Positions 48,190 through 64,000 of a stretch of DNA of 64,000 bases are shown here, one piece after another. The translations under genes and the position numbers were made by a program. The DNA comes from Candidatus Fervidifonticultor secundus (GTDB lineage: Bacteria; Sysuimicrobiota; Sysuimicrobiia; Sysuimicrobiales; Humicultoraceae), in contig JAVKIP010000001.1 in assembly GCA_031459385.1 (NCBI GenBank), forward strand, positions 96,001-160,000, in the 5' to 3' direction. Position 1 is the first letter of the stretch. Each line of letters opens with the position of its first letter. A model generated the notes under the pieces. The model was not told where the DNA came from. It searched no databases and saw nothing but the letters and a program-made list of their open reading frames with translations.

Positions 48190-48215
48190 GCCCTCCCTCC
48201 CCCGGCCGCGGCCGC

Positions 48216-49229: not shown

Positions 49230-49322
49230 CGCTGTCCTCCCTCATCGGCGGGCGCCCGGCGGCCGGTAAGGCCAGGTGCGCCCGCAGCGCACGTCGTGCT
49301 CGAGGTGTGTGGTGACTTCGGT

Positions 49323-49424: not shown

Positions 49425-49435
49425 GTTTGCTGCTG

Positions 49436-49464
49436 ATCCTAGCACACCGGCTGCCTCCGCGCAA
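49436..49464 (-). promoter_or_regulatory. SigA-type promoter for the leader/ATP-grasp operon
   Basis: TTGCGC-17 nt-TAGGAT with extended TG. Confidence 0.6.
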
Positions 49465-49556
49465 TCCACGCGCGGAGTGCGGAGTATAGAAGGGAGTCCA
49501 TCTCCCGTCTCCGTCACATCCGAGGGAACGGCACAGGCAGGCGCGAACCCTGGGGC

Positions 49557-50576: not shown

Positions 50577-50660
50577 GCCGCGCGACGCCCCCTTGCGGCA
50601 GGGCGGGCCATGTGGTAGGTACGAGGTAACCGCCGTGCCGGCGGTCTGCGAGGTTCGCCG

Positions 50661-50738
50661 ATGAGCAGGGCGAGAGCCAGCCGCTGGAACGCCGCGAGTC
50701 GTCCGCGCGAGTGCATCTGTCCGTCGCGAAGGCGATAG
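50661..50738 (+). CDS. Putative Cys-containing leader peptide MSRARASRWNAASRPRECICPSRRR
   Basis: GAGGT RBS; PRECICP; stop codon inside a 9-bp hairpin; homologous to 49323..49424. Confidence 0.6.
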   Translation: MSRARASRWNAASRPRECICPSRRR

Positions 50739-50864
50739 CCTTCGCGTTCCCCGCGTAGTCCAGTCATCTGCTGCTTTACTGCCGGGTCGGGGTGCCCGGA
50801 GGTGTGCACCGGTTCCGGGCGTGTCCGGCCCCTGGTGCCGAGAGGACGCCGGAGGTGGCGTGCG

Positions 50865-51971
50865 ATGGAGAAGCGTCGTGACCTGCAGGTGCCTGTCGCC
50901 GGTGCCGACCCCTCGTGCTGCCCGCCGGACGATGCGGAGGTGGTCAGCGACGGCTTCATGCCGCGGCGCGCGTTCCTGGCCAGGCTGTCGCAGGTTGGGC
51001 TGGCCGCGGCCGGGTGGGCCTGGCTGGCCGACCGCCCCGCGGCGGCGCAGGGCCGGCGGCGCGTGCGGCTGGCGTTCTGCAGTCAACTGCTCTGCATCAT
51101 TCCCTACGAGGTCGCCCGGCGGCAGGGCTACTACGCAGAGGAGGGTCTCGATGTCGAGCTCGTGTACTTCCGGGGCGGCAGCGCGGCCATACAGGCGCTG
51201 GTGGGCGGCGCGGTCGAGTACGCAGCCACGTCGTTCGACGTGGTGCTGGCTGCGGCGAGCCGCGGCGCCGACGTGGTGCGCTTCTTCACCACGGGCCGGC
51301 TGCCGCTGTTCGCCCTGGCCGTCGCGCCGCACGCGGCAGAGGCGGTGCGCGGGCTGCCGGACCTGCGCGGGCGCACGGTCGGCGTCTCCGCGCTTGGCAA
51401 CGCTGACCACCTGCTGGCTGGCTACCTGCTCCAGCGCGCGGGCGTGCGGCCGACGGCGGTGCAGTTCGCCGTGCTCGGGCCCAACCTCTTCGAGGCGCTG
51501 CGCGCCGGGCACGTCGACGCCGGCATGGTGCAGGAGCCCGCGGCCACGCTGCTGGAGCAGCGTGGCGGGCGCGTGCTCGTCAACCTCATGGATCTGGCGC
51601 AGGCCCGGCGCTACCTGGGCGGGCCGTACGAGTTCATGGGGGTCGCCGTGCGCGCGCCCGAGTGGCAGGAGCGGCAGGCCGAGATGCGGGCGCTGGCGCG
51701 GGCGCTGGAGCGCGCGCTGCGGTTCATCCACTACGGCACGCCGCGGCTGGTGATCGACGCGCTGCCGGCCGAACTGATCGCGGGCGGCGACCGCGCGCTG
51801 CTGGAGCAGGTGCTGGCCCGGCACCGGCGGTCGCTCTACCCGCAGGATGGTCGCATCGACCTGGCCGCGGCGCGCCGGGTCGTCGCCGTGCAGCAGCAGG
51901 CCGGGGCGCCTGTAGCCGCAGACCTCGCGCGGCTGCTCAACCCGGCCATCGCGGGGGCGGCCAGCCCGTGA
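50865..51971 (+). CDS. NitT/TauT/SsuA-family ABC substrate-binding protein with Tat signal
   Basis: PRRAFL Tat motif, EEGLDVELV..RGG, DLRGRTVGV, VDAGMVQEP. Confidence 0.87.
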   Translation: MEKRRDLQVPVAGADPSCCPPDDAEVVSDGFMPRRAFLARLSQVGLAAAGWAWLADRPAAAQGRRRVRLAFCSQLLCIIPYEVARRQGYYAEEGLDVELVYFRGGSAAIQALVGGAVEYAATSFDVVLAAASRGADVVRFFTTGRLPLFALAVAPHAAEAVRGLPDLRGRTVGVSALGNADHLLAGYLLQRAGVRPTAVQFAVLGPNLFEALRAGHVDAGMVQEPAATLLEQRGGRVLVNLMDLAQARRYLGGPYEFMGVAVRAPEWQERQAEMRALARALERALRFIHYGTPRLVIDALPAELIAGGDRALLEQVLARHRRSLYPQDGRIDLAAARRVVAVQQQAGAPVAADLARLLNPAIAGAASP

Positions 51972-52759
51972 TGGTCGGGGGCGTGGCGCTGGAGATCCGC
52001 GACCTGACCGTCGCCTACGGGCACCACGAGGTGCTGCGCGATTTGAACCTCGTGGTCCCCGAGGGACAGTTCGTGGGCCTGGTCGGTCCGTCGGGCTGCG
52101 GCAAGAGCACGCTGCTGCGGGCCGTGGCGGGGCTGGTCCCGCCGGCCCGCGGCACGCTGGCGGTGTTCGGGCGCGCGGTGACCGGGTGCGCCCCGGAGGT
52201 CGGCATGCTCTTCCAGGAAGACGCGTTGCTGCCGTGGCGCACCGCACGGGACAACGTGGCCCTCGGCCTGCGGTTTCGCGGGATGGCGGCGGGCGATGCT
52301 CGCGCCGCAGCGCGGGCCTGGCTCGAGCGCCTGGGACTGGGTGCGTTCGCTGACCACTTCCCGCACGAGCTCTCCGGCGGCATGAAGAAGCGCGTGGCGC
52401 TGGCCCAGGTGCTCGCGCCGCAGCCGCGCCTGCTGTTGATGGACGAGCCGTTCGCGAGCCTCGACGCCATCGTGCGGACGGTGCTGGAGGCGGAGTTCGC
52501 GCGGCTGGTGCGCGCCGAGGGCCTCACCGTCGTCCTGGTGACGCACGACCTGGAGGAGGCGCTGCTGCTCGCAGACCGCGTGGCCGTCCTCTCGGCCGGG
52601 CCGGCTGCGCGCATCCTGCGCGTCTACGACGTGCCGTTTCCGCACCCGCGAGACCCGGTGCACCTGCGCGGCGCGCCGGTCTTCGGCCGGCTGCTGGCGC
52701 GGCTCTGGGGCGACCTGCGCGCGGAAGTGGGCCGGATGGGCTGGGAGGTGCCGGCATGA
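51968..52759 (+). CDS. NitT/TauT-family ABC ATPase
   Basis: GPSGCGKST, LLPWRT, LSGGMKKR, MDEPF. Confidence 0.92.
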   Translation: MMVGGVALEIRDLTVAYGHHEVLRDLNLVVPEGQFVGLVGPSGCGKSTLLRAVAGLVPPARGTLAVFGRAVTGCAPEVGMLFQEDALLPWRTARDNVALGLRFRGMAAGDARAAARAWLERLGLGAFADHFPHELSGGMKKRVALAQVLAPQPRLLLMDEPFASLDAIVRTVLEAEFARLVRAEGLTVVLVTHDLEEALLLADRVAVLSAGPAARILRVYDVPFPHPRDPVHLRGAPVFGRLLARLWGDLRAEVGRMGWEVPA

Positions 52760-53652
52760 GGCGCCTGGGCGCGCTCGTGGCGCTGCTGGCGGTGTGGGAA
52801 GCGGTCGTGCGGATGGGGTGGGTCAGCCCGCTGCTGGTCCCGCCGCCGGTCGTGGTGGCCCGCGTCGTCGCCGACCTCGTGCGGGGCGGTGCGCTGTGGG
52901 GGCACGTCGGTGCGACACTGCTGGAGGCGCTGGGCGGCCTGGGGCTGGGCGTCGCCGCGGGCGGGCTCCTCGGGCTGGCCGCGGGCCTGCTGCCGCCGGT
53001 CGCGGACCTGCTGCAGCCGGCCATGGCCGTGCTGAACGCCGTGCCGCGGGTGATCCTGGCGCCGCTGCTGGTGATCTGGTTCGGGATCGGCGTGGCGTCG
53101 AAGATCGCGCTGAGCTTCCTCCTCGTGGCCGTCACCGTGTTCTTCGCCGTGTACGGCGGCATCCGCGAAACCGACCCCCGGCTGGTGGAACGGGTGCGCA
53201 CGCTGGGGGGCGATGCGTGGGCCGTGGTGCGCGAGGTCTACGCCCCGTCGGTGGGCGCCTGGGTGGTGAGCAGCCTCAAGCTGGCCGTCGGCTTCGCGTT
53301 CACGGGCGCGGTCGTGGGCGAGTTCGTCGCGTCCAGCCGTGGCCTGGGCTACCTGCTGTCGTTTGCCCAGAGCACCTACAACGCGGCCCTCACCGTGGCG
53401 CTCATCGCGCTGGTGATGGCGGTGACCCTGACGCTGTTCGCGGGGCTGGAGCGCGGGGAGCGCCGGCTGCTCCGATGGAAGCACGGTGCGCGGCCTCGAC
53501 GCGCGCCAGGATCCCGCGCCGCGGCGCCCGTCTCGGCACGTGAGACGGTGCCCGCCCCCGCGTCCGGCGAAGGAGGAGCCCGCACGCAGCCCGAAGCCCC
53601 TGGAGGTTTTTCCGATCGGCCGCCCGCGACCCGGGCGCAGGAGGTGGGGTGA
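52756..53652 (+). CDS. NitT/TauT-family ABC permease with low-complexity C-terminal tail
   Basis: VPRVILAPL...WFGIG..SK, GAVVGEF...S.GLGY. Confidence 0.9.
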   Translation: MRRLGALVALLAVWEAVVRMGWVSPLLVPPPVVVARVVADLVRGGALWGHVGATLLEALGGLGLGVAAGGLLGLAAGLLPPVADLLQPAMAVLNAVPRVILAPLLVIWFGIGVASKIALSFLLVAVTVFFAVYGGIRETDPRLVERVRTLGGDAWAVVREVYAPSVGAWVVSSLKLAVGFAFTGAVVGEFVASSRGLGYLLSFAQSTYNAALTVALIALVMAVTLTLFAGLERGERRLLRWKHGARPRRAPGSRAAAPVSARETVPAPASGEGGARTQPEAPGGFSDRPPATRAQEVG

Positions 53653-53658
53653 GTGGCG

Positions 53659-54921
53659 ATGAATTTCCTGGTGCGCGTCAGGCGGGGGGCCCTGGCGGCA
53701 GTGGTGAGTGCGGCGCTCGTCGCCGGTCTGGGGACGTGGGGCGCCGCGCAGCAGCGGACGGCGCTGCGCTTCTGGATGTCCGCGGATCCTGCCCTGGAAC
53801 AGGCGATGGACGCACTGCTCCAGGGCTATATGCGGGCCAATCCGACCGTCACGGTCCAGCGCGACGCCTTCCCGTTCATCGAGTACCACCAGAAACTGAC
53901 CACCGCCTTCGCCGCAGGCGATCCGCCCGACGTCTTCTGGATGGACGTGCGCACGGCGGCGTTCGCGGCCCAGGGCAGCCTGCTGGTGCTCGAGCGCTTC
54001 ATCACGCCGCAGAACAAAGCCGACATCCTTGAGTCGGGGTTGATCGAGCCGGTCTGGAAGGGCAAGCTCTACGGCGTGCCGATGCACGAGCTCACCGAGG
54101 GCCTGTTCGTCAACCGGGCCATGCTCGAGGAGGCGGGCATCCGCATCCCGCAGCGGCTCAACGAGGCGTGGACCTGGGACGAGTTCGTCACCATCGCGCG
54201 GCGGCTCACGAAGCGGACCGGCGAGCGCACCGACGTCTGGGGCTTCGGCGTGCTCCGGCACCTGAGCGACTGGCCGATCCTGCCCATCATCTACCAGAAC
54301 AACGGCGCGGTGTTGAGTCCCGACCTGAAGAAGGCCACCGGCTACCTGAACAGCCCGGCCACCGTCGAGGCACTGCGCTGGTACCAGGAGCTGTTCACGC
54401 GGCACCGGGTCATCGCCTTCGATCCGATTCCCGAGGGCTTCCCCACCGGGAAGATCGCGATCTTCCAGGCGCCCAGCACCTACCGCGCGGTGCTGGACCG
54501 GCGCTACCCCGACTTCAAGTACGCGGTCATCCCCATGTTCCGCGGGAAGCGCTGCGCGGTGACGGCGGGCGGGTGGAACGTGTCGATCTCGGCGAAGACC
54601 AGGCATCCTGAGGTGGCCTGGTCGCTGGTGGACTGGCTCACCCGCGAGCGCCACCAGGAGTGGGTGCGGACCAGCGGGTACCTGCCCGTGCGCAAGTCCC
54701 TGGTGCAGCGGGACCCGCAGTTCCGGCAGTACCCGTGGAGCATCTTCATAGCGCAGCTCCAGGCGTGCCAGATCCACCGGCCGCACACGCCGGCATACAA
54801 CTTCTTCTTCGACACGTTCCTGGCCATCGCCAAGGACGTGGCGCTGGGCCGGGACGTGCAGAAGGTGCTGGACGACGCGGCGGCGCGTCTGGACGTGGCG
54901 CTGGCCCGCGGCGGCCGCTAG
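53659..54921 (+). CDS. Carbohydrate-type ABC substrate-binding protein
   Basis: Signal peptide, AGDPPDV, GKLYGVP, WTWDEF; start may be 53653 or 53659. Confidence 0.88.
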   Translation: MNFLVRVRRGALAAVVSAALVAGLGTWGAAQQRTALRFWMSADPALEQAMDALLQGYMRANPTVTVQRDAFPFIEYHQKLTTAFAAGDPPDVFWMDVRTAAFAAQGSLLVLERFITPQNKADILESGLIEPVWKGKLYGVPMHELTEGLFVNRAMLEEAGIRIPQRLNEAWTWDEFVTIARRLTKRTGERTDVWGFGVLRHLSDWPILPIIYQNNGAVLSPDLKKATGYLNSPATVEALRWYQELFTRHRVIAFDPIPEGFPTGKIAIFQAPSTYRAVLDRRYPDFKYAVIPMFRGKRCAVTAGGWNVSISAKTRHPEVAWSLVDWLTRERHQEWVRTSGYLPVRKSLVQRDPQFRQYPWSIFIAQLQACQIHRPHTPAYNFFFDTFLAIAKDVALGRDVQKVLDDAAARLDVALARGGR

Positions 54922-54926
54922 CGCGC

Positions 54927-55859
54927 GTGACCTGGTCGGTGCGCCGGCGGGCGCCAGCGGCGCCCGGGGCGCGTCGGCCCCCGGGGGCGGGCCTGGCCCG
55001 CCAGCGGTACCGGGCCGCGGCGATCTTCCTGCTGCCCGCGACGGTGGGGATCGTGCTCTTTTCGCTCCTGCCGATCCTCCAGGCGCTGCGGCTGAGCCTC
55101 TTCGACTACTCGCTGCTCAGCCCAGAGCGGCTGTTCGTCGGGGGCGCCAACTACGCGCGGGCGGCGCAGGATCCCATCTTCCGCATCGCGCTGCGCAACA
55201 CGCTGGTCTACGCCGCGCTGCTCGTGGCGCTGCAGACGGTGGCCGCACTGGGGCTCGCGCTGCTCCTGAAGCGCCCGGTTCGGGGGCTGGCGTTCTTCCG
55301 CTCGGCGTTCTTCATCCCGGTGGTGACGTCGCTGGTGGTCATCAGCACGGTGTGGAAGCTGATGTACAACTCCCAGGGGGTCATCAACAGCGTGCTGGCG
55401 GCCCTGGGCCTGCCGCCGCAGCCGTTCCTGGCCAGCGCCGACCAGGCGCTGGCCAGCCTGGTGCTGATGAGCGTGTGGAAAGAGGTCGGCTTCTACATGC
55501 TCATCTTCCTGGCGGGGCTGCAGGCGATCCCCGGCGAGCTGTACGAGAGCGCGGCCATCGACGGGGCCACGGCCTGGCAGAGCTTCTGGCGGATCACGCT
55601 GCCGCTGCTGCGGCGCGCGGCGGTCTTCGTCGTCGTGGTCGGTACGATCTCGGCCTTCAAGGTGTTCACGCCGGTCTACCTGATGACCGACGGTGGACCG
55701 GCCGACAGCACCATGGTCATGGTGTTCTACATCTTCCGCACGGCCTTCCGGTACTTCGAGATGGGGTTCGCGGCGGCGATGTCGTTCGTGCTGCTGGTCG
55801 TCGTCCTGCTCCTGACCCTGGTGCAGTTCCGGCTGCTGCGCACCACGGTGGAGTACTGA
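54927..55859 (+). CDS. Carbohydrate-type ABC permease
   Basis: LAGLQAIP.ELYESA.IDGA, MTDGGP; start approximate. Confidence 0.9.
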   Translation: MTWSVRRRAPAAPGARRPPGAGLARQRYRAAAIFLLPATVGIVLFSLLPILQALRLSLFDYSLLSPERLFVGGANYARAAQDPIFRIALRNTLVYAALLVALQTVAALGLALLLKRPVRGLAFFRSAFFIPVVTSLVVISTVWKLMYNSQGVINSVLAALGLPPQPFLASADQALASLVLMSVWKEVGFYMLIFLAGLQAIPGELYESAAIDGATAWQSFWRITLPLLRRAAVFVVVVGTISAFKVFTPVYLMTDGGPADSTMVMVFYIFRTAFRYFEMGFAAAMSFVLLVVVLLLTLVQFRLLRTTVEY

Positions 55860-55862
55860 GGG

Positions 55863-56786
55863 GTGCGGCGGGCGGAGCGCGGATCGCTGGCGGCGGCGCC
55901 CCCGGGAGCCGGGGCCCGGGCGGCGGGCTCGCCCTGGACCCTGGTGGGGCGCGGCGTGGGGCGGGTGAGCCTGTACCTGGCGCTCGGTGCCCTGGCCGCG
56001 GTCTTCCTGGTGCCGTACCTCTGGATGGCTGCGTCCTCGCTGCGCCCGCAGGCCGAGATCTTCCGGTACGTATCGCCGCTGTCGTGGCGGACGTTCGTGC
56101 CGGACGTGCTGACCCTCGACGCCTACCGCGAGCTGTTCCGGCTGGTGCCCTTTCCCTTCTCGCGCTACCTGCTCAACAGCGTGTTCGTGGCCACGACGGT
56201 CACCCTCCTGAGCCTGGTCGTCAACGCCATGGCCGCCTACGCCTTCGCCCGCCTGGCGTTCCCCGGGCGCGAGGTCCTCTTCGCGCTGTTCCTGAGCACG
56301 ATGATCGTGCCGTTCGAAGTGCTGGCCATTCCGCTCTACCTGCAGGTGCGCGCGCTGGGCTGGGTCAACACGTACCAGGCGCTGATCATCCCGTGGGTGG
56401 CCAACCCCCTGGGCATCTTCCTGCTGCGGCAGTTCTTCCAGGAGATCCCCCGGGAGCTGGAGGAGGCCGCCCGCATCGACGGGTGCTCGTACTACGGCGC
56501 GTTCCGGCACGTCGTGCTGCCCAACGCCGTTCCCGCCCTGGTCGCGTTCGCCCTGATCCGCTTCCAGGCCAGCTGGGACGCGTTCCTGTGGCCGCTGATC
56601 GCGGCGCCGGCGGCGGAGAAGCGGGTGATCCAGGTGGCGATCGCCAGCTTTGCCACCGAGGTGCAGACGCGCTGGGACCTGACGTTCGCGGCCAGCACGA
56701 TGGCCACCGTGCCCATCATCGTCGTCTTCCTGATCCTGCAGCGCTACTACGTGCAGGGGGTCGTGATGAGCGGGCTCAAGGGATGA
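55863..56786 (+). CDS. Carbohydrate-type ABC permease
   Basis: IPRELEEAARIDG, WDAFLWPL. Confidence 0.9.
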   Translation: MRRAERGSLAAAPPGAGARAAGSPWTLVGRGVGRVSLYLALGALAAVFLVPYLWMAASSLRPQAEIFRYVSPLSWRTFVPDVLTLDAYRELFRLVPFPFSRYLLNSVFVATTVTLLSLVVNAMAAYAFARLAFPGREVLFALFLSTMIVPFEVLAIPLYLQVRALGWVNTYQALIIPWVANPLGIFLLRQFFQEIPRELEEAARIDGCSYYGAFRHVVLPNAVPALVAFALIRFQASWDAFLWPLIAAPAAEKRVIQVAIASFATEVQTRWDLTFAASTMATVPIIVVFLILQRYYVQGVVMSGLKG

Positions 56787-56904
56787 GGAGGACGCAGGTA
56801 CCGCGCGGGTGGCCGGCACGCGGCGGCCGGTGCGACGCGCCACCCTGGCGGATGCGGCACGCCAGCCTGTGGGCGTGCCGCGGCTTCGGACACTGGAGGA
56901 CGGG

Positions 56905-57990
56905 ATGAGCATGTACACCCACGACGCGATGCTCGCCGAGCTGCGCGCGATCGCCGCATCGGCCCGGCACGTGACGATCGACCGCGAGCAACTCGCCCGC
57001 GTGGCGGCGGTGCTGCGGGGCCGGCTGGGCGTCGACGACTTCCACATCCGCCGCGACTGTCCGTCGCTGGCGCCGGCGGAGGCGCTGCAGTTCTCCCTGG
57101 TGGCCGGGACCCACAACTTCCTCATCTGGCAGCGGACGTCCGGCGGCGGGGTCGAGCCCTGGCGCGCCTGCGTCGACGGCGAGGAGCGCTACGGGGCGCC
57201 GGCGATCTACGCCTGCCACCTGCGCGCCCTCCGCACGGGCCGGAACATCCTGGACGCGGACTACCTGGTGTCGATGACGCTGGCCGACATGGAGGACTAC
57301 TACCGCGACGAGCGCACCGGCGCGGTGACCCTGCAGTTCCTCCCACAGCGGCTGGCCAAGTTCCACGAGGTGGGCCGCGTGCTCCGCGAGCGCTACAGCG
57401 GCTCGTTCGTCACGCTGCTGGAGCGCGCCGAAGGCTGGCTGTTCCGGCCCGATGGCCAGGGGATCGCGCAGCGGCTCCTGGAGGACTTCCCGCTGTCGTA
57501 CGGCGACTGGCCGTTCTGCAAGCTGGTGATGGTCACCCTGGGCAACCTCTACGCCGACCGGGAGCACCTGGGGCCGGCGGGGACACCCGCCCGCGCGCTG
57601 GTGGACCTGCGGGACCCCGAGCACCTCGAGGTCGGGGCCGACTACTACCGACCGTTCTTCCTGTACCGGGTCGGCGTACTGCGGGTGAGCGAGGCGCTGC
57701 GGGCACGACTGCAGCAGCGGGTCCTGGTCGAGCGCGACAGCCCCATGGAGCGAGAATACCGCGCCTGGACGATCCTGGCAGCGCGGGAACTGGCCGAGCG
57801 CCTGGGCGTGCTGCCGCACGAACTGGCGAAGGAAACGTGGGCCATGGCCTTCATGCGCTGTCGGCCCTGTCACCCCGGGGTCGATCCGCAGGTGGTGCCG
57901 TGCGACTACCGGGAGACCTGCCACGCGTATACACGGGACCCGGCGCTCATGGACGCACTCTGGCCCCTGGTGCACACGCCGTGGTACTGA
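56905..57990 (+). CDS. Queuosine-salvage (Qng1/DUF2419)-like N-glycosylase, paralog 1
   Basis: HVTID start, NF..W, PFCKL, ADY, E.EYRA, C-terminal P...T..Y; Cys-rich insert. Confidence 0.65.
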   Translation: MSMYTHDAMLAELRAIAASARHVTIDREQLARVAAVLRGRLGVDDFHIRRDCPSLAPAEALQFSLVAGTHNFLIWQRTSGGGVEPWRACVDGEERYGAPAIYACHLRALRTGRNILDADYLVSMTLADMEDYYRDERTGAVTLQFLPQRLAKFHEVGRVLRERYSGSFVTLLERAEGWLFRPDGQGIAQRLLEDFPLSYGDWPFCKLVMVTLGNLYADREHLGPAGTPARALVDLRDPEHLEVGADYYRPFFLYRVGVLRVSEALRARLQQRVLVERDSPMEREYRAWTILAARELAERLGVLPHELAKETWAMAFMRCRPCHPGVDPQVVPCDYRETCHAYTRDPALMDALWPLVHTPWY

Positions 57991-58009
57991 GCTGACCGGA
58001 GGAGGCCCC

Positions 58010-59113
58010 ATGCCGTATACCCACGAGGCGATGCGCCGCGAGATCGACGGCCTTGTCGGTTCCGCGGTCCACGTGACGATCGACGACGGCGCGGTGGCGG
58101 GCGTCGCCACCGTGATGCGCCAGCAGCTGGCCGCGGGCGGCGCGGCTTTCCAGACCGACCCCCAGCGGTACCCCGCCGAGTCGCCGGCCGAGAACACCCG
58201 TGATACGCTGCAGTTCTACCTGGTGCTGACCTCGCAGGAGTTCTGCATCTGGCGGCGCCGGACCGACGGTGCCGTCGAGGCCTGGGAGATCGAGATCGAT
58301 GGAGTGCGGTTCGTGGGCGCCCGCGGCATCGCCGCGGCACACATGCGCGCGCTGCGCCGGGGTCGGGACATCCTCGACGCCCGCTACCTGGCGGCGATGA
58401 CCCTCGACGATGTACGCGACTTCTACCGCGACGAGCGGACCGGCGAGGTCACCCTGCAGCTGCTGCCGCAGCGGCTGGCCAAGTTCAACGAATTGGGGCG
58501 GGTGCTGCTCGAGCGCTACGGCGGCCACGCGGCCAACCTGCTGGAGGCCGCCGGGGGGTATCTGTTCCGCGGCGACGACCAGGGGCTGATCCAGCGGCTG
58601 CTGCTGGACTTCCCCACGGCGTACTTCGACTGGCCGTTCTGCAAGCTGGCCATCCTCTACCCGAAGTTTCTGAGCACGCGGGCCACCGATGGGGTGCCGA
58701 CCACGGCGGAGTACCGGGCGCGGGCGCGCATCCACGACCCCGAGCACTTCGAGATCGCCGCCGACTACTACATCCCGCTGTTCTTCATCCGCACCGGGAT
58801 CTTCCGTGTCGACGACGAGCTAGCCAGGCGTCTGCGCGCGCAGCAACTCATCGAGCGCGACAGCCGCATGGAACGCGAGTACCGCGCGGCGACCATCGTG
58901 GCCGGTCGGCGGCTGGCCGAAGCCACCGGCGCCACGGTCAACGCCGTGGACACGGAGTGCTGGCGCATGGGCTACCTGGGGTGCCGACCGTGCCGGCTCG
59001 GCGTGAGCGACACCGAGCATCCGTGCGCCTACCGCGGCATCTCCCGCGCCTACCAGCAGGAACACGCGCTGATGGAGCTGCGGTGGCCGCTGGTGCTCAC
59101 CACGTGCTACTGA
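58010..59113 (+). CDS. Queuosine-salvage (Qng1/DUF2419)-like N-glycosylase, paralog 2
   Basis: Clearly homologous to paralog 1 (YRDERTG.VTLQ.LPQRLAKF, DWPFCKL, ADYY, ERDS.MEREYRA); NAVD..W; PLVLTTCY. Confidence 0.68.
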   Translation: MPYTHEAMRREIDGLVGSAVHVTIDDGAVAGVATVMRQQLAAGGAAFQTDPQRYPAESPAENTRDTLQFYLVLTSQEFCIWRRRTDGAVEAWEIEIDGVRFVGARGIAAAHMRALRRGRDILDARYLAAMTLDDVRDFYRDERTGEVTLQLLPQRLAKFNELGRVLLERYGGHAANLLEAAGGYLFRGDDQGLIQRLLLDFPTAYFDWPFCKLAILYPKFLSTRATDGVPTTAEYRARARIHDPEHFEIAADYYIPLFFIRTGIFRVDDELARRLRAQQLIERDSRMEREYRAATIVAGRRLAEATGATVNAVDTECWRMGYLGCRPCRLGVSDTEHPCAYRGISRAYQQEHALMELRWPLVLTTCY

Positions 59114-59190
59114 CGGTCCCCGGCGGCGGCCCGCGCGTCCGCGCCGCGCCGCCTGGCGCCGTCACTGCCGCGTGTTGAGGAGGACCCCGT

Positions 59191-60129
59191 GTGCGCGTGA
59201 TCATCGACACCGATCCAGGCATCGACGACACCGCGGCCATCTTCCTCGGGCTGGCGGCGGGGCTGCAGGTGGAGGCCGTCACCACGGTCTTCGGCAACAC
59301 GGACGTCGAGCACTGCACGCGCAACGCGCTCGTCGTCCTCGAAGCCGCTGGCCGCCCGGACATCCCCGTGCACCCCGGGGCGGCGGGGCCGTTGATTCGC
59401 GAGCCCACCTACGGAAGGGCGATTCACGGAGAGAACGGGCTCGGCGACATCGAGGTGCCGGCGCCGGCACAGGCGCCCGCCCCGGGAGGTGCCGTGGAGG
59501 CGATCATCCAGCGGGTCCTCCAGGCGCCCGGCGAGATCACGCTGCTCGCCCTGGGGCCGCTCACCAACGTCGCGCTGGCGCTGGCCGCCGAGCCCCGCCT
59601 GGCCCGCGCGGTGCGCCGCATCGTGGTCATGGGCGGCGCCGTGCTCACCTGGGGCAACGTCACGCCGGCCGCCTCCGCCAACCTCTACAACGACCCCGAG
59701 GCGGCGCGGCTCGTGTACCGGTCGGGCGCGCCGCTGGCGCAGGTGGGGCTCGACGTCTGCCGGCCGACGGTGATTCCCGCAGACCACCTGGCGCGGCTGC
59801 GGCAGGCGCCGCATCCCGCGGTCGGGCTGCTGCTGCGGGTCACCCCCTTCATCCAGGAGGCGTACCGCCGGCGGGGCATCGCGGCGGTGGCCGGCGGCGG
59901 CGTGCAGTACAACGACGTGGTCTGCATGGCCTACGCACTGCGCCCCGCCCTGTTCCGGACGCGACACCTCCCCGTGGACATCGAGACGCAGGGGGCGCTG
60001 ACGGCGGGTGCCACCGTGGCGGACTTCGACGGCCGGTGGGGGCGGCCCGCCAACGCCGACGTCGCCCTCGAGGTCGACGCCGCGGGCGTGGCCGACTTCT
60101 TCACGGAGACGCTGCTGGCCTGGCGGTAG
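59191..60129 (+). CDS. Nucleoside hydrolase (IU-NH family)
   Basis: IIDTDPGIDD Ca-binding motif, TTVFGN, HGENGLG, LGPLTN, MGGA, DPEAA. Confidence 0.92.
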   Translation: MRVIIDTDPGIDDTAAIFLGLAAGLQVEAVTTVFGNTDVEHCTRNALVVLEAAGRPDIPVHPGAAGPLIREPTYGRAIHGENGLGDIEVPAPAQAPAPGGAVEAIIQRVLQAPGEITLLALGPLTNVALALAAEPRLARAVRRIVVMGGAVLTWGNVTPAASANLYNDPEAARLVYRSGAPLAQVGLDVCRPTVIPADHLARLRQAPHPAVGLLLRVTPFIQEAYRRRGIAAVAGGGVQYNDVVCMAYALRPALFRTRHLPVDIETQGALTAGATVADFDGRWGRPANADVALEVDAAGVADFFTETLLAWR

Positions 60130-60157
60130 CGGCGCAGCGCACGAAGGAGGTGCAGCC

Positions 60158-60955
60158 GTGCGACTGGCGGGGAAGGTGGCGGTCATCACCGGGGGCGCGC
60201 AGGGTATCGGGCTGGCGATCGCCAGGCGGTTTGGGGCCGAAGGTGCGGCGGTCGTCGTCGCTGATATCGACGAGGCGCGTGGTGCGGCGGCGGCCGCGTC
60301 GCTGCGCGACCGGGGAACGCAGGCGGTGTTCGAGCCCACCGACGTGTCGGACGCCGGGCAGGTCGCCCGGCTCTTCGCCCGCGCGGCGGAGACGTTGGGC
60401 AGGGTGGACGTGTTGGTGAACAACGCAGGCCTGGTCCACGGCCCCGCGGTCGAGCGCCACTTCCTCGACACCGACGAGGCGACCTGGGACCGCGTGATGG
60501 CCGTGAACCTCAAGGGCGTCTACCTCTGCTCCTGGCACGCCGCCCGCTACATGGTGGCCCGCCGCGCCGGCTGCATCATCAGCATGAGTTCGTGCGGCGC
60601 CACGCGTGCTCACCGCCACCGGGTGGCCTATGACGCGGCGAAGGGCGCGATCGAGGCCGCCACCCGCGCCATGGCCCTCGACCTGGCCCCGTGGGGCATC
60701 CGCGTGAACGCCATCGCGCCGGGCGCGATCGCCGTGGAACGCCGCAGCCCGGTGGGCGAGGAAGGGCAGGTGGCCGTCGGCGACGTCATCCCGCTGGCGC
60801 GTCTGGGCACGGGCGACGATGTGGCAGGCGCTGCGGTCTACCTGGCCTCCGACGACGCCGCCTACCTGACGGGGGTCGTCATTACCGTCGACGGGGGTCT
60901 GTCAGCGCAGCTGCGGTCGCCGGCGGTCGACGTCAAGGTCGCGGTGGCCGGGTAG
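60158..60955 (+). CDS. SDR family oxidoreductase
   Basis: TGGAQGIG, NNAG, YDAAK, RVNAIAPG. Confidence 0.92.
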   Translation: MRLAGKVAVITGGAQGIGLAIARRFGAEGAAVVVADIDEARGAAAAASLRDRGTQAVFEPTDVSDAGQVARLFARAAETLGRVDVLVNNAGLVHGPAVERHFLDTDEATWDRVMAVNLKGVYLCSWHAARYMVARRAGCIISMSSCGATRAHRHRVAYDAAKGAIEAATRAMALDLAPWGIRVNAIAPGAIAVERRSPVGEEGQVAVGDVIPLARLGTGDDVAGAAVYLASDDAAYLTGVVITVDGGLSAQLRSPAVDVKVAVAG

Positions 60956-60971
60956 GGGCCCGCACCATCGG

Positions 60972-62132
60972 TCACTCGTGCGGTGCGGGGTCGATCTGCG
61001 TGGGCACAGCCCCTCCGATGGCGACGTGACCCCTTCGCATCGACGTGGAGTTTCGTTGCTCCGCATGGTTTCGGATGAGGGCCAGGGTGCGGTAGACGGC
61101 GTGGATGAACTTGCCGTGGGCTGCCGTCACGTACAGCGCCGCGACGAAACCGAGGTGAACCGCAAGGGTCATCCCCATCAGGACCGTCTCCCGCAGGGAG
61201 AGCGTCAGCATCCCCGTCACGTTGGTCATCCCGAGGATGGACAGGAACAGGTAGTCGCTGGCGATCGATGCGCGAGCCGACGGCTCCTGGTCGCTCCCAC
61301 GCTTTGCGTGCCAGAGGCCCACGCATCCCGCGATCATGGCCAGGCCGCCGACCGTTCCCAGGACGACCGGGAGGCTCAGGAGCGGGTAGGGAGGCAACCG
61401 TCCCAGCAGCTCTTGATAGATGGCTGCGGATGTCGTGGAGGCGAAAGCGGCGATGAACCCGTAGAAGACCAGACCGTGGAAGACGCGACGGCTGTGGGAT
61501 GGACGCTCGGTTGGATAGGGGCAACCACCCCCGCCCCCGCGCAGCCATCGCATGCGCAGGACGTCCCAGGCGGCTAACGCGAGGTCGCGCGCACGCACGG
61601 GGATGGCAGCGGAACCGGATTCGCGCCAGAACTGGACGCCGGCGATACCCCAGATGCCCAGCCAGTAGCCCCCGAGGCCCAGGCCTACCGCGAGCATGAC
61701 CCAGTGCGGGATGACCCGGTAGAAGGCCCCCGGACCCGTGTGGACCATGAACAACCGGGGGCCTGCGATCCACGCCGCCAGAGCCGTGACGATGAGCATC
61801 ACTCCAGCCACGGCGCCGACGGCGGCTTTGGCATCACGGTAGAGAAAACGCATGAATCCTGGCCAGGTATGCGCCTGGTAGGTTTCGCCCCGCACGTCGG
61901 CCAGGACCCGCGGGATGTTCACCGCAAACTCATGGGGCGGAGCATACATGCAGGCGTAGTAGCAAGCGCGGCAGTCGTGACAGAGGCTGGCGAGGTAGAC
62001 GATGTCACCATCCGCAACGGCGCGGCGGAGTTCCAGCGCAGGAAAGACCGCGCAGAAGCCCTCGCAGTACCTGCAGGCGTTGCAGATCGTCAGCTGGCGC
62101 TGGGCGTCTTGTAGTACCTCAGCGCGTCGCAT
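60972..62132 (-). CDS. tcuB: Tricarballylate utilization 4Fe-4S membrane protein
   Basis: ICNACRYCEGFCAVFP, CHDCRACYYACMYAPPHEF, GKFIH. Confidence 0.9.
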   Translation of the reverse strand: MRRAEVLQDAQRQLTICNACRYCEGFCAVFPALELRRAVADGDIVYLASLCHDCRACYYACMYAPPHEFAVNIPRVLADVRGETYQAHTWPGFMRFLYRDAKAAVGAVAGVMLIVTALAAWIAGPRLFMVHTGPGAFYRVIPHWVMLAVGLGLGGYWLGIWGIAGVQFWRESGSAAIPVRARDLALAAWDVLRMRWLRGGGGGCPYPTERPSHSRRVFHGLVFYGFIAAFASTTSAAIYQELLGRLPPYPLLSLPVVLGTVGGLAMIAGCVGLWHAKRGSDQEPSARASIASDYLFLSILGMTNVTGMLTLSLRETVLMGMTLAVHLGFVAALYVTAAHGKFIHAVYRTLALIRNHAEQRNSTSMRRGHVAIGGAVPTQIDPAPHE

Positions 62133-63522
62133 GCCTGACCGCTTCCGTACCGGCTATGCGTCCAAACACCGTCCCGATGGTCATACCGATGCCCGCGAGG
62201 TACCCACGGGTGAGGATGTTGCCTGCCATGATCTCGCCGGCTGCGTAGAGATTTCGAAAGGGGGTGCCGTCCTTTTGCAGGACGCGCGCGCAAGCGTCGG
62301 CGGCGACACCCAGGTACGTGAACGTGATGCCCGGGCGCGTGGGAAAGGCGTGGAACGGCGGGTGTTCGATCGGTAGCGCCCAGTTGCTCTTGGGCGGGTG
62401 GAGGCCGCGTGTGCTCGCTCCGTCGAGGACGTCGGGTTGGATGTGCGTGTTGTGGCGGGTCGCCTGGTTGAACTCCTCGACGGTCCGCACGAACTCCATG
62501 CGGTCGAGGCCAAACTGCGCGTCGAGCTGACCGGCGAGGTCGACGAGTGATCGGGCTGTCAGCGGGGGAAACATCGGGGGAATGAAGCCGTCGATGGTGC
62601 GTGCGTCGAGTACCGCAAACGCGATCTGGCCCGGCTGCTGGGCGATGAGCCTGCCCCAGATCGCGTACCGCTTCGGCCACAGGTCCTCGCCCTCGTCGTA
62701 GAAGCGCCTGCCGAGGCGGTTGACGACGATGCCCAGGGGAATCGCGTCGACCCGCGTGGCAATGCCGCCGTCGTACTTGGGAGCGCGGGCGTCCACGGCG
62801 ACGCCATGGAACTCGCGAGGATCTCCCACGGCGAGGGCGCCCTTGCCGAGCAGGAGGTGCAGCAGTGTCCCGTCGTTGTACGGTGTGCCGCGCACGATGA
62901 AGTTCCTGGCCGCCGGCCCCCAGTGGTCCGAGAGCCAGTCCAGGTTGGCCTCGAAGCCACCGGCGGCGATCACGGCAGCCTTGCCACGGATCACTCCCCC
63001 GTCGGCGGTGACCACACCCTCCAGGTGCGGACCGTCCAGGAGCAGGTCGACGACGCCGGTGTCGTAGAGGACGTCCACGCCCAGGCGCGCGATGCGGTCG
63101 TAGTAGGCGTTGAGGAGAGCTTTGCCGCCGCCCAGGAAGAAGAGGTTCGTGCGACTCAGCGCGAGGGTGCCGGCGATCGGTGCCTGCCACCTGGCACCGC
63201 GTGCCGCCATCCAGTGCGGTACGTCTCTGGACGCCTGTACCAGCAACCGGGTCAGGTCGTGGTTGAGCGGGGTGCCAGTGACACCGATCAGGTCCTCCAG
63301 AAACTCGGCCTCCGTGTACACGCCCGTCATGTAGGAGACCTGGGCATCGTGGGCGCAGCGCAGATTGCGCGTGTGACGGCTGTTCCCGCCCCGCATGTGC
63401 TGGGGGGCGCGTTCCAGGACGATGACCCTGGCACCCTGCTCCCGGGCCGCAAGGGCCGCACAGAGGGCTGCATTGCCGCCGCCGACGACGATGACGTCGT
63501 ACTCGGACGAGGCGCGCGACAC
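62119..63522 (-). CDS. tcuA: FAD-dependent tricarballylate dehydrogenase
   Basis: GGGNAALCAA, RGGNSRHTRN, LSRTN.FFLGGGKAL, GITFTYLG; GTG start near 63522. Confidence 0.88.
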   Translation of the reverse strand: MSRASSEYDVIVVGGGNAALCAALAAREQGARVIVLERAPQHMRGGNSRHTRNLRCAHDAQVSYMTGVYTEAEFLEDLIGVTGTPLNHDLTRLLVQASRDVPHWMAARGARWQAPIAGTLALSRTNLFFLGGGKALLNAYYDRIARLGVDVLYDTGVVDLLLDGPHLEGVVTADGGVIRGKAAVIAAGGFEANLDWLSDHWGPAARNFIVRGTPYNDGTLLHLLLGKGALAVGDPREFHGVAVDARAPKYDGGIATRVDAIPLGIVVNRLGRRFYDEGEDLWPKRYAIWGRLIAQQPGQIAFAVLDARTIDGFIPPMFPPLTARSLVDLAGQLDAQFGLDRMEFVRTVEEFNQATRHNTHIQPDVLDGASTRGLHPPKSNWALPIEHPPFHAFPTRPGITFTYLGVAADACARVLQKDGTPFRNLYAAGEIMAGNILTRGYLAGIGMTIGTVFGRIAGTEAVRHATR

Positions 63523-63524
63523 CG

Positions 63525-63998
63525 TCAGGCGCCCGTGCTGGCTGTGGCTGCAGCTCCTCGGTTCATGCGCATGCGTATCATGTGCGCCCGGGCCATGTGT
63601 TGGTGCGCGATGTGGGCGGCGCGTTCCGCGTCGCCCCGCTTGATGGCGTCCAGGAGCTCGCGGTGTTCCCCCAGCGCCTCTTCCGCCCGACCGGGATAGG
63701 TGAGCGTCGTGCCCTGCCGGCGCGCGATCAGGAGCCGGATTCTGTCGAGCTGCCGCGCCAAGTAGCGGTTGCGGGACGCTCGCCAGATGACGGCGTGGAA
63801 CTCGGCGTTCAACCGGGCCAGCGTCGCGACGTCGCCGTCGCGAAAACTCTGCTCCATCTCGCGGGAGAGTTCTTCGAGCAGATACAACTCGGCGCTCGTG
63901 ACCGAGCCAGCTGCGAGCCGTGCTGCGAGGCTTTCCAGGGCCTCGCGGATGACGCACAACTCCGACAGCTCGTCGTAGGGTGGCTCACGCACGATCAC
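63525..63998 (-). CDS. GntR family regulator (FCD domain), truncated by window edge
   Basis: IREALESLAARLAA, NAEFH, SRNRYL, EHRELLDAI, QHM. Confidence 0.85.
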   Translation of the reverse strand: MIVREPPYDELSELCVIREALESLAARLAAGSVTSAELYLLEELSREMEQSFRDGDVATLARLNAEFHAVIWRASRNRYLARQLDRIRLLIARRQGTTLTYPGRAEEALGEHRELLDAIKRGDAERAAHIAHQHMARAHMIRMRMNRGAAATASTGA

Positions 63999-64000
63999 CC

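Follow-up and report, generated by a model that had tools for sequence, protein, structure and literature searches.

The window, the whole 64,000-nucleotide stretch of DNA that was analysed, carries a seven-gene operon that is, on balance, best explained as an accessory system for taking up and degrading N-ribosides from outside the cell, whether nucleosides or glycosides that resemble them; the target is probably an unusual or modified nucleoside rather than queuosine. At its centre lie two tandem genes for the proteins QA and QB, which belong to a small and so far unstudied branch of the queuosine-salvage (Qng1) family that looks as if it binds metal.

Organisation and conservation of the operon

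The operon begins with a CUT1-type (family 1) ABC substrate-binding protein (53659..54921; SBP_bac_1 116 bits, SBP_bac_8 97.8 bits), which has an N-terminal signal peptide, and continues with ABC permease 1, which is UgpA/MalF-like (54927..55859; BPD_transp_1 46 bits), and permease 2, which is UgpE/MalG-like (55863..56786; BPD_transp_1 75.4 bits). These are followed by the predicted Qng1-like HhH N-glycosidases QA (56905..57990; PF10343 72.5 bits) and QB (58010..59113; PF10343 86.9 bits), each the namesake of its own clade, by a RihA/RihC-like ribonucleoside hydrolase of the IU-NH family (59191..60129; PF01156 (IU_nuc_hydro) 296.5 bits) and by a classical SDR of the glucose-1-dehydrogenase-like subfamily (60158..60955; adh_short_C2 216 bits). 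All seven of the co-oriented, close-set genes that an earlier note had described are thus present on the + strand, as judged from open reading frames and Pfam. The intergenic gaps are, from 5' to 3', 5, 3, 118, 19, 77 and 28 nt, and GGAGG-type ribosome-binding sites precede the starts that were read from the DNA, namely those of the binding protein (ATG 53659, behind AGGAGGTG), permease 1 (GTG 54927, a tentative assignment), QA (ATG 56905, behind GGAGGA), the IU-NH hydrolase (GTG 59191) and the SDR (GTG 60158, behind GAAGGAGG). The QA reading frame opens at GTG 56809, yet its homologues begin at the MYTH motif. Neither a lactonase nor a sugar kinase is found in the window's operon.

A second ABC importer is encoded directly upstream (50802..53652, +), comprising an NMT1/THI5-like binding protein (50802-51971; NMT1 82 bits), an ATPase (about 51971-52759; ABC_tran 112 bits) and a permease (52756-53652; BPD_transp_1 73 bits), with 6 nt separating its stop from the ATG at 53659. 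It also precedes the cluster in L018, another genome of the genus, and is absent from this position in the related loci L019 and L021; it is possibly co-transcribed with the operon, in an adjacency confined to the window's genus.

Does the gene order reflect a common function? The neighbourhoods of 15 other clade loci were surveyed, with genes called by our own GC3 heuristic. Two more genomes of the genus, L018 and L007, have the same seven-gene order, and variants with a QB-type gene but no QA are found in three more genera of the family: importer, QB, IU-NH and SDR in L019, and importer with QB in L020 and L021. In L021 no IU-NH or SDR follows, while the L020 sequence stops at QB, and is so uninformative on downstream genes, and that of L023 is cut inside QB. 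Orthologues of the binding protein, 80-88% identical, form the first gene of the cluster in L018-L021. A Chloroflexota (Ardenticatenaceae) MAG, L024, contains an importer, two IU-NH genes and a QA-like gene. Since the same order is seen in two more genomes of the genus, and variants elsewhere, the arrangement is not a matter of chance: the cluster is a real, conserved operon, found as variants in three further genera of the family and in one Chloroflexota MAG. That the genes share no pathway, a sugar importer having landed by chance next to a lipid or sugar SDR and nucleoside hydrolases with housekeeping roles, is very doubtful; the 118-nt gap between permease 2 and QA, the shorter arrangement in L021 and promoter and terminator calls that do not exceed shuffled expectation would suit such an accident, but importer and QB adjoin, at 67-88% identity, in four of the family's genera, the Chloroflexota set is independent, the genes all run in one direction with short gaps and ribosome-binding sites, and the patchy clade moves together with its neighbours.

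QA and QB form a distinct branch of the Qng1 family

The two proteins are, as the earlier note had it, clear paralogues, with 50% identity across 365 residues (E 4e-115). Both exceed the 25-bit cut-off of the Pfam Q_salvage profile PF10343 and both match the sequence of StQng1 (7uk3; E 2.9e-11 for QA and 2e-16 for QB). The AF2 model of QB (pLDDT 97.2) superposes on 7uk3 with a VIA Z of 38.2 and an rmsd of 2.0 A over 306/319 residues, and on human QNG1 with a Z of 37.6. The Qng1/DUF2419 membership proposed for the pair therefore holds by profile and PDB sequence match for both, and by fold for QB. Likewise the PF-C-K, ADY, E.E.R and C-terminal WPLV..T..Y motifs occur in QA and QB alike, and in the clade alignment (n=29) the catalytic residues K199, D231, Y232 and R269 are each conserved in 29/29 sequences, E267 in 24/29 and the C-terminal Tyr in 28/29.

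Among 1.84 billion representative proteins the family search gave 2301 matches, about 22 of them in the clade, with a break in score between 22 matches at or above 241 bits and the remainder at 169 bits and below. The clade is monophyletic in the tree (support 0.991), within which QA and QB represent separate old subclades. It is found in 7/33 other genomes of the same family and in 0/27 genomes of other families, counts that take in the unpublished genomes G010 and G019.

The branch is also marked by cysteines, arranged as C-x2-C-x10-C-x6-C in QA and as C-x7-C-x2-C-x10-C in QB. The three Cys of C-x2-C-x10-C are present in 28/29 clade sequences, the fourth lies at either of two positions (22/29 and 8/29, with both in 3), and 27/29 have at least four; the motif occurs in 0/104 'canonical' members, a set consisting of the best-scoring non-clade matches to our own profile and not a curated Qng1 collection. 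The shifting fourth ligand argues for a four-ligand metal site, and the clade-specific Cys probably bind either a [4Fe-4S] cluster or Zn. Following the Qng1 proteins, the next structural match of the QB model is EndoIII (Z 14.9), aligned between model residues 25-353 and chain residues 1-213 with the iron-sulfur end of EndoIII included, and EndoIII, MutY and AGOG together are its next neighbours at Z 13-15. This HhH fold and the EndoIII-like position of the Cys cluster are what could suggest that QA and QB act in DNA or RNA repair, as glycosylases of the HhH superfamily, and not on small molecules. Such a role is extremely improbable, as the QB model follows StQng1 through the Qng1-specific insertions, which are described in PMC9881137 as obstructing the DNA cleft, the C-terminal Tyr tail is retained and the operon is shared with an importer.

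The substrate pocket and the case for queuosine

In the description given in PMC9881137, Arg80 and Lys233 are the phosphate-contacting residues of Qng1, and Asp298 and Trp302 hold the 7-deazaguanine ring in StQng1. The specificity of the QA/QB pocket was read from alignment columns, comparing the 29 clade sequences with the 104 canonical ones. His316, present in 103/104 canonical sequences, is Pro in 29/29 of the clade; Arg80 (K/R in 73/104) is Ala or Pro in 29/29, and Lys233 (K/R in 64/104) is Tyr in 29/29. Trp48 falls from 78/104 to 3/29 and Asn72 from 86/104 to 4/29, at a position highly variable within the clade where QA keeps the Asn and QB has Glu. Phe75 is mostly Ile, and the Y93-W94 pair is Ala-Arg in QB and Ala-Pro in QA, though the canonical set varies at several of the Q-pocket positions too (Y93: A 32, Y 30, S 28). 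At the D298 position the clade has D 17, A 6, E 5 and V 1, with Ala in QA, and QB retains the equivalents of Asp298 and Trp302 as D314 and W318. The variable positions would fit a clade spread across several substrates, and with its Asp and Trp, the guanine-face readers of StQng1, QB may accept a 7-deazaguanine or guanine nucleoside.

Could the operon then salvage queuine or another 7-deazaguanine, with the importer taking up queuosine or a preQ0/preQ1-type nucleoside, QA or QB freeing the base and TGT inserting it into tRNA, after QueF where the base is preQ0? Besides family membership, fold and the retained Asp298 and Trp302 equivalents of QB-type proteins, the genome itself lends something to this idea. 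It is 97.6% complete and encodes TGT, QueA and QueF, and a true QueC is found neither here nor in the 33 same-family and 27 other-family genomes searched with it (61 in all), where matches reach at most 45 bits and cover the N-terminal PP-loop; the organism must therefore obtain 7-deazaguanine externally. However, a YhhQ/Vut_1 gene adjoins queF on another contig, a pairing that fits direct preQ0/preQ1 uptake given the transporter role ascribed to YhhQ in PMC11130926; as had been remarked, neither tgt nor yhhQ is adjacent to the operon, both lying on other contigs. QueC is missing from every one of the 61 genomes, yet among the other 60 the clade occurs only in the few same-family genomes counted above. 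No riboswitch, preQ1 or other, is detected within 48000-64000 at E <= 1, the cyclopentenediol and phosphate positions of the pocket are lost, and a micronutrient route leaves the additional IU-NH, the SDR and the catabolic neighbours elsewhere unexplained. Salvage of this kind is accordingly unlikely, and queuosine, which the earlier note had put first among the possible substrates, is not supported by the pocket, genome and distribution evidence. As the pocket no longer looks queuosine-like, some other nucleoside is most likely the food of the operon; another modified nucleoside is our preferred reading, and the suggested role in nutrition, as opposed to tRNA salvage, is the best fit to the evidence.

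Proposed uptake and breakdown of N-ribosides

The IU-NH hydrolase scores 248 bits against the NCBIfam RihC model and 227 bits against RihA, both under the equivalog cut-offs, matches RihA 6zk1 in the PDB (E 4.8e-56), and has an N-terminal DTDPGIDD; the genome contains two further IU-NH genes. The SDR, with TGGAQGIG and Y-x3-K, reaches 239.7 bits in the NCBIfam 'glucose 1-dehydrogenase' subfamily NF005559 (cut-off 215). The top NCBIfam matches of permease 1 are UgpA, GlcT and MalF and those of permease 2 UgpE, GlcU and MalG, all under cut-off. The usual ligands of CUT1 binding proteins are sugars or oligosaccharides, and known nucleoside ABC importers belong to other families; the CUT1 type of the binding protein and its nearest PDB relatives, which bind sugars, oligosaccharides or glycerol-3-phosphate (E 8e-22 or weaker), speak against the N-riboside reading.

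Elsewhere in the clade, ABC importer genes occur at 12/15 loci and an MFS transporter at 1, IU-NH genes at 5/15 (in two copies in L024), SDR genes at 5/15 and PfkB or FGGY kinases at 4/15. In L019 the SDR has a metallo-beta-lactamase-fold hydrolase as its neighbour, in L030 an Amidohydro_2 protein. L030 also has a uridine phosphorylase that exceeds its NCBIfam cut-off, and L019 an amidohydrolase of the TRZ/ATZ type resembling 5'-deoxyadenosine deaminase along with two Nuc_deoxyrib_tr proteins; L022 contributes a dihydropyrimidinase-like protein and L024 an ADP-ribosylglycohydrolase. Other loci hold SIS-domain proteins weakly similar to GlmS or fructoselysine-6-P deglycase, PfkB kinases weakly similar to fructoselysine 6-kinase, an AP_endonuc_2 isomerase, Opp/Dpp-type binding proteins, an M20 peptidase and a D-glutamate-cyclase-like protein. 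Because several of these (SIS, PfkB, AP_endonuc_2, Opp-type and M20) would also suit glycosylamine or peptide-conjugate catabolism, and the importer is of the sugar type, the substrate could conceivably be a glycoside other than a nucleoside, whether of the glycosylamine or Amadori type, a conjugate of sugar and amino acid, or an oligosaccharide that carries an N-linked aglycone; the Qng1-like enzymes would then cut a non-nucleobase N-glycosidic bond. This has little probability, for every Frl-like match is far under cut-off, the ribose-holding K199, Y232 and C-terminal Tyr of Qng1 are retained in 28-29/29 sequences, and the clade is repeatedly accompanied by IU-NH, uridine phosphorylase, Nuc_deoxyrib_tr and amidohydrolases of the nucleobase type.

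From the observed gene content, family membership, fold, residue patterns and conserved neighbourhoods we infer the substrate class, metal, pathway direction and SDR role of the favoured N-riboside system. The CUT1 importer would take the compound up, with energy probably supplied by the only MalK-type ATPase of the genome (OB_MalK), encoded away from the operon. Three N-glycosidases (IU-NH, QA and QB), in whose translations no signal peptide is seen, would then split base from sugar in the cytoplasm. In the predicted QA/QB core the Lys would hold the ribose diol, Asp-Tyr would act at C1' alongside Glu-x-Arg, and the carboxylate of the C-terminal Tyr would close the site, with base pockets that appear unlike each other and unlike that of Qng1. 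The non-basic 5' pocket makes it more likely that they use unphosphorylated nucleosides or ones with a non-polar 5' group. The four Cys probably hold their [4Fe-4S] or Zn where EndoIII and MutY have the iron-sulfur loop, and the SDR probably oxidises the freed sugar to a lactone.

Comparison with known systems

Qng1/QNG1 (DUF2419, PF10343) is reported in PMC9881137 as a queuosine-5'-phosphate N-glycosylase/hydrolase from Sphaerobacter thermophilus and human (PDB 7uk3, 7u07, 7u91, 7ugk). QA and QB resemble it in fold, in the HhH Lys, Asp-Tyr, Glu-x-Arg and C-terminal Tyr, and in being cytoplasmic, single-domain proteins of comparable size. They differ in having 24-28% identity to it, PF10343 scores of 72-87 bits as against 178-354 for the seven canonical-type proteins scanned, the replaced His316, Lys233 and Arg80 and lost Trp48, Tyr93 and Trp94 pocket, and about 40 additional residues near the C-terminus with the Cys3-4 motif, missing in 104/104 canonical sequences. 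Their clade lies in catabolic importer clusters, as a tandem pair in the window.

With EndoIII and MutY the two proteins share the superfamily fold and a four-Cys motif at the C-terminal end of the HhH domain, where the metal of QA and QB is putative. Their Cys spacings differ from the C-x6-C-x2-C-x5-C of EndoIII, and unlike those DNA glycosylases they have Qng1-type insertions and a C-terminal tail that form a closed small-molecule site.

QueK is an IU-NH-family queuosine hydrolase acting with QueL in indirect queuine salvage, according to the description in PMC11130926. The window likewise has an IU-NH hydrolase in a locus with a Q_salvage-family gene, but its enzyme scores highest to the RihC and RihA models, and by Pfam the cluster is without a QueL-type radical-SAM lyase.

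Finally, in Rih-type and ribose-utilisation loci free nucleosides, modified ones too, are broken down by IU-NH enzymes to base and sugar, as is proposed for the window; related accounts are those of an IU-NH enzyme as a 2'-O-methyluridine hydrolase (PMC6278475) and of a 2'-O-methyl nucleoside demethylation pathway (PMC12709175). Unlike such loci, the window operon is without a ribokinase, and its IU-NH hydrolase shares the locus with two Qng1-like glycosidases, a CUT1 importer and an SDR that resembles sugar dehydrogenases.

The operon and its products

Seven co-oriented genes occupy positions 53659-60955 on the + strand of the window, and open reading frames together with Pfam matches bear out both the coordinates and the motif observations of the earlier note. 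The first gene encodes a family-1 solute-binding protein (SBP_bac_1, 116 bits), which is followed by two permeases (BPD_transp_1, 46 and 75 bits), the tandem paralogs QA (56905-57990) and QB (58010-59113), which score 72.5 and 86.9 bits for Q_salvage/PF10343 against a cut-off of 25, an IU-NH nucleoside hydrolase (IU_nuc_hydro, PF01156, 296.5 bits, cut-off 34.2) and an SDR (adh_short_C2, 216 bits). The intergenic gaps are 5, 3, 118, 19, 77 and 28 nt, GGAGG-type sites in the DNA precede the starts ATG 53659, GTG 54927, ATG 56905, GTG 59191 and GTG 60158, and GC content across the region is 0.69-0.76. The host genome comprises 3.3 Mb in 59 contigs, at 97.6% completeness and 5.5% contamination. 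No riboswitch was found between 48000 and 64000 with Rfam (E <= 1), which returned three chance-level matches only, and a scan for promoters and terminators gave nothing beyond shuffled expectation.

The binding protein and the two BPD_transp_1 proteins form the set typical of a carbohydrate uptake transporter 1 (CUT1), and the best NCBIfam matches of the permeases are to UgpA/E, GlcT/U and MalF/G, all below cut-off; on these family similarities the importer is classed as CUT1. An ATPase gene is absent from the seven-gene operon, and the genome has one OB_MalK-bearing ATPase, on contig C16. The IU-NH carries the motif DTDPGIDD at residues 6-13 of its translation, and this N-terminal Asp cluster is where such enzymes bind Ca2+. 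It scores below the NCBIfam equivalog cut-offs for both RihC (248 versus 382) and RihA (227 versus 433). The SDR has a TGGAQGIG cofactor motif and YDAAK, with its Tyr-x3-Lys, and is placed by NCBIfam in the glucose-1-dehydrogenase-like subfamily (NF005559, 239.7 bits, cut-off 215). The window operon is without a kinase, a lactonase or a regulator.

A second ABC importer, composed of an NMT1/THI5-like binding protein, an ATPase and a permease, lies directly upstream (50802-53652, + strand), its stop falling 6 nt before ATG 53659 of the CUT1 binding protein; this adjacency is found only in this genus. The permease reading frame ends in ~50 low-complexity residues that are unconserved at L018, a locus of the same genus, and may really be intergenic. 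On the other side, two tricarballylate utilisation genes (60972-63957, - strand) converge on the SDR with a gap of 16 nt, these being TcuB (TIGR02484, 378 bits) and TcuA (NF006130, 635 bits), both over their NCBIfam cut-offs.

A separate branch of the Qng1 family

The proposal that the paralogs are relatives of Qng1/DUF2419 stands, as both proteins exceed the PF10343 cut-off and the fold of QB agrees. QA and QB share 50% identity (E 4e-115) and match the solved Qng1 chains of Sphaerobacter thermophilus and human with E values of 2e-16 to 4e-7. An AlphaFold2 model of QB, built on a 120-sequence alignment, has a mean pLDDT of 97.2 and a pTM of 0.94, and Foldseek returns S. thermophilus Qng1 (StQng1, PDB 7uk3) as its top match (E 8e-17). 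When aligned to 7uk3 with VIA-align, the model (range 2-367) gives Z 38.2 and an rmsd of 2.0 A over 306 of 319 residues. Human QNG1 follows at Z 37.6; EndoIII, AGOG and MutY come after it at Z 13-15. The model thus predicts that QB adopts a two-lobe HhH fold and carries both the insertions specific to Qng1 and the C-terminal tail. NCBIfam has no model for QA or QB, and a protein atlas search returned Q_salvage clusters only. A word-based query, which is weak evidence, found no fused or longer forms of QB (644-2000 aa), and none of 56 near-length matches exceeds 387 aa. StQng1 itself is described as a monomer in the Qng1 structure paper (PMC9881137).

Within this family the two proteins belong to a clearly delimited group. 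A profile built from 22 close relatives and searched against 1.84 billion representative proteins (E <= 1e-3) gave 2301 matches with a sharp break in score, 22 representatives standing at or above 241 bits and the next at 169 bits. The 22 top representatives align through to the C-terminus; for the bulk of the family, at ~108-157 bits, the alignment mostly ends near profile positions 303-327. A FastTree phylogeny (LG+gamma, 322 trimmed columns, midpoint-rooted) was computed for 138 sequences, comprising 29 members of the group (QA and QB among them), 104 further proteins of the family and 5 intermediates. The 29 are recovered as a single clade with support 0.991, and the remaining 109 sequences all lie outside it. 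The 104 sequences, referred to here as canonical, are the best matches to our own profile outside the clade. QA and QB fall into different subclades, each well supported (1.0 and 0.973), so the tandem pair reflects an old duplication and not a recent one. Membership of the Qng1 family is solid. With the Pfam Q_salvage model the clade scores 34-94 bits, versus 178-354 bits for seven canonical-type proteins scanned. Three other family proteins (P0104, P0136, P0189) are fusions of a canonical-type Q_salvage domain with, in turn, a GNAT acetyltransferase, a class-I methyltransferase and an MFS transporter.

A retained catalytic core and a rebuilt pocket

The roles of the StQng1 residues, whose numbering is used here, are taken from the structure paper (PMC9881137), and the state of each residue was read from columns of a joint alignment of the clade and the canonical set. 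The catalytic residues, namely the HhH Lys199, Asp231-Tyr232, Glu267 and the C-terminal Tyr323, whose carboxylate is described there as part of the active site, all occur in both QA and QB. In the clade as a whole, Lys199, Asp231, Tyr232 and Arg269 are kept in 29/29, the C-terminal Tyr in 28/29 and Glu267 in 24/29.

The pockets are a different matter. The same paper attributes the preference for queuosine-5'-phosphate to a pocket of Arg80, Lys233 and Gln306, and this pocket is not kept in the clade: Lys233 (K/R in 64/104 canonical sequences) is Tyr in 29/29, Arg80 (K/R in 73/104) is Ala or Pro in 29/29, and the position of Gln306 holds Tyr, Phe, Ala or Leu. The queuine pocket and proton relay, given there as Trp48, Tyr93/Trp94, Asp69, Asn72, Asp207, Asp298, Trp302 and His316 (PMC9881137), is likewise not preserved as a set. 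His316, which is His in 103/104 canonical sequences, is Pro in every clade member (29/29), Phe75 (F/Y in 100/104) is Ile in 26/29, and Trp48 (Trp in 78/104) is Trp in 3/29. Asn72 (Asn in 86/104) is found in four of the 29, in the QA clade; QB and four close relatives have Glu at this position, and elsewhere it is His, Gln, Gly, Ser, Met, Cys or others. Asp298 (Asp in 92/104) is Asp in 17 clade members including QB, Ala in 6 including QA, Glu in 5 and Val in 1, and Trp302 (98/104) is Trp in 23/29; in the joint MAFFT alignment QB D314 and W318 correspond to Asp298 and Trp302. Positions 93, 94 and 53 of the queuine pocket vary within the canonical set too. Taken together, the kept and the changed alignment columns indicate that the clade retains Qng1 chemistry and the ribose grip, that the basic 5'-phosphate pocket is lost, and that the pocket for the base and its 7-substituent is rebuilt, differently among the subclades.

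A cysteine cluster

The clade also has ~40 extra residues ahead of the C-terminal tail, in which cysteines recur. Scored at five aligned positions, three core cysteines (QB C325, C328 and C339) are present in 28/29 clade members and all three in 0/104 canonical sequences. A fourth is found either downstream (22/29, including QA) or upstream at QB C317 (8/29), with both in 3, such that at least four cysteines occur in 27/29. A fourth cysteine that shifts position without altering the total of four is the pattern expected of a metal site, and the cluster is probably one, on the strength of these alignment columns. EndoIII aligns to QB model residues 25-353 over its whole chain (residues 1-213), which places the clade insertion at the position of the EndoIII iron-sulfur loop. 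EndoIII and MutY bind a [4Fe-4S] cluster at that loop, with the spacing C-x6-C-x2-C-x5-C; the spacing in the clade, however, differs.

Divergent Q_salvage proteins outside the clade (P0126, P0135, P0079, P0088) have cysteines at some of the same columns, the pattern in P0126 reading C-x4-C-x2-C-x5-C in the alignment, so cysteine clusters may exist in several branches of the family.

Queuosine in the host lineage

Could the operon nevertheless serve queuine salvage? The host genome has two matches to TGT (484 bits at C2:66150-67211 and 481 bits at C29:12667-13731), together with QueA, near the TGT copy on contig C2, and QueF. The near-equal TGT scores may reflect either a real duplication or a product of the contamination in the assembly. 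A gene for a Vut_1/YhhQ-type transporter adjoins QueF on contig C56 (128795-129650), outside the window. QueC was not found in the host genome, nor was any QueC-like match above 45 bits found in the 61 genomes searched (0/61), which include the window genome and the unpublished G010 and G019; the weak matches mostly span the first ~60 profile positions, corresponding to the N-terminal PP-loop of other enzymes. The QPTR/COG1738 family (PF02592) is known as a preQ0/preQ1 transporter, according to PMC11130926. With no QueC in 61 genomes and a YhhQ-QueF pair, the lineage looks like a preQ0/preQ1 salvager and appears to depend on imported preQ0/preQ1.

The Qng1-like cluster is present in only a minority of these genomes. 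This, together with the missing riboswitch, the changes to the pocket and the YhhQ-QueF pair of the lineage, makes queuine salvage by the operon unlikely, and queuosine is not supported as its substrate, since neither the phosphate pocket nor the queuine pocket is kept and a dedicated YhhQ-QueF pair lies elsewhere. QB does retain both residues, Asp and Trp, by which the guanine face is recognised, making a 7-deazaguanine or guanine-type nucleoside a possible substrate.

Gene neighbourhoods and distribution

The clade is patchy. A QB query matches 7/33 other genomes of the same family and 0/27 genomes in six other families of the order, and clade matches occur in 4/27 genera searched, with the window genome counted; the genome counts include the unpublished G010 and G019. 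A one-genome-per-species scan yielded 13 loci. Beyond the window, 15 loci (L007, L013 and L018-L030) were examined by tblastn with the window proteins, their genes being called by our own GC3 heuristic and assigned with Pfam and NCBIfam. The survey shows that the cluster recurs, with the full seven-gene order at two loci of the same genus (L018 and L007). ABC importer genes are found in 12 of the 15 loci, an MFS transporter in 1, IU-NH in 5, sugar kinases in 4 and an SDR in 5. Most loci have a single paralog. Several of the locus contigs are cut, so absences there mean little.

In another genus of the family, L019 combines a binding protein, two permeases, QB, IU-NH, a metallo-beta-lactamase-fold hydrolase and an SDR, and its opposite strand encodes a TRZ/ATZ-type amidohydrolase, two Nuc_deoxyrib_tr proteins and an NmrA-like protein; the best NCBIfam matches of the amidohydrolase, below cut-off, are N-ethylammeline chlorohydrolase and 5'-deoxyadenosine deaminase. 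L020 and L021, likewise from outside the genus, hold a binding protein, two permeases and QB. Further afield, an Ardenticatenaceae MAG has two loci. At L024 a family-1 binding protein, a sugar isomerase-like TIM barrel, two IU-NH, BtpA and two permeases are faced by a QA-like gene (62%), an FGGY kinase (xylulokinase-like) and an ADP-ribosylglycohydrolase, and at L022 two clade genes accompany GntR regulators, an Opp-type importer and a weak QueT-like protein. Adjoining those two clade genes (L022:12285-17817) are genes for AllG (an oxamate carbamoyltransferase subunit), a CoA-ligase-domain protein, a Zn-ADH and a dihydropyrimidinase-like amidohydrolase, a block that could possibly be a ring-opening route for the released base.

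The Anaerolineales locus L030 has an IF-2B-family isomerase, SIS proteins, an SDR, Amidohydro_2, uridine phosphorylase (TIGR01718, 296.6 bits, cut-off 280.3), an MFS transporter and PfkB. L027 (Chloroflexales) has IU-NH and PfkB, and L029 (Rhodospirillaceae) has PfkB. Family-5 (Opp/Dpp-type) importers are found at L025, with an M20 peptidase and a D-glutamate-cyclase-like protein, at L026 (Rokubacteria), with an amidohydrolase and a SIS protein, at L013, and at L028, with BtpA. BtpA/SgcQ-family TIM-barrel proteins thus lie near clade genes in two unrelated loci (L024:4995-5840 and L028:4331-5119). What recurs across the loci is import followed by N-glycosidic cleavage and then by processing of base and pentose. 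In the available part of the supplement to PMC11130926 no entries were found for PF00528, PF01547, PF00496, PF01156, Armatimonadota or Ardenticatenaceae.

Proposed pathway and comparison with known systems

In the pathway we propose, the CUT1 importer would take up the compound, energised probably by the single OB_MalK-type protein on C16, and the IU-NH, QA and QB would hydrolyse N-ribosidic bonds of different bases. A non-basic, aromatic 5' pocket would favour free nucleosides, or those with non-polar 5' groups, rather than 5'-phosphates. More speculatively, the Glu that QB carries at the Asn72 position might protonate a ring nitrogen in the manner of Glu43, the general acid of MutY. The SDR may oxidise the released sugar to a lactone, a role suggested by the NF005559 match and by the placement of an SDR beside a hydrolase in L019 and L030; the fold of that neighbouring hydrolase includes lactonases.

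A tentative reading, possible and, taken whole, rather improbable, is that QA and QB represent an undescribed metal-bearing (probably [4Fe-4S]) branch of Qng1 that has turned from queuine salvage to catabolic N-glycosidases for exogenous unusual nucleosides, different subclades, those of QA and QB among them, taking different bases and the cysteine cluster linking the iron-sulfur DNA glycosylases EndoIII and MutY with cluster-free Qng1. Hypermodified tRNA nucleosides, 7-deazapurine nucleosides and 5'-modified nucleosides would be example substrates under the same doubtful reading. No paper describing the clade was found among PubMed Central open-access papers and bioRxiv. Databases label its proteins 'queuosine salvage family protein', which is probably a misnomer, and where such genes are counted as queuine salvage in metagenomes the pathway would be overstated.

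To our knowledge, the consumption in nature of free modified nucleosides from RNA turnover is largely unexplained, and Qng1 has so far been known for one reaction only. The clade combines Qng1 chemistry with a probable metal site and a pocket that has been rebuilt, in importer-linked catabolic operons of several bacterial phyla, and offers concrete enzymes and a binding protein for screening against nucleoside substrates. Its moving fourth cysteine provides a simple test of iron-sulfur cluster persistence in a small-molecule HhH enzyme. Of the known systems Qng1 is the closest, and the clade resembles it in fold and catalytic core, but differs in lacking the features that define specificity for queuosine-5'-phosphate.
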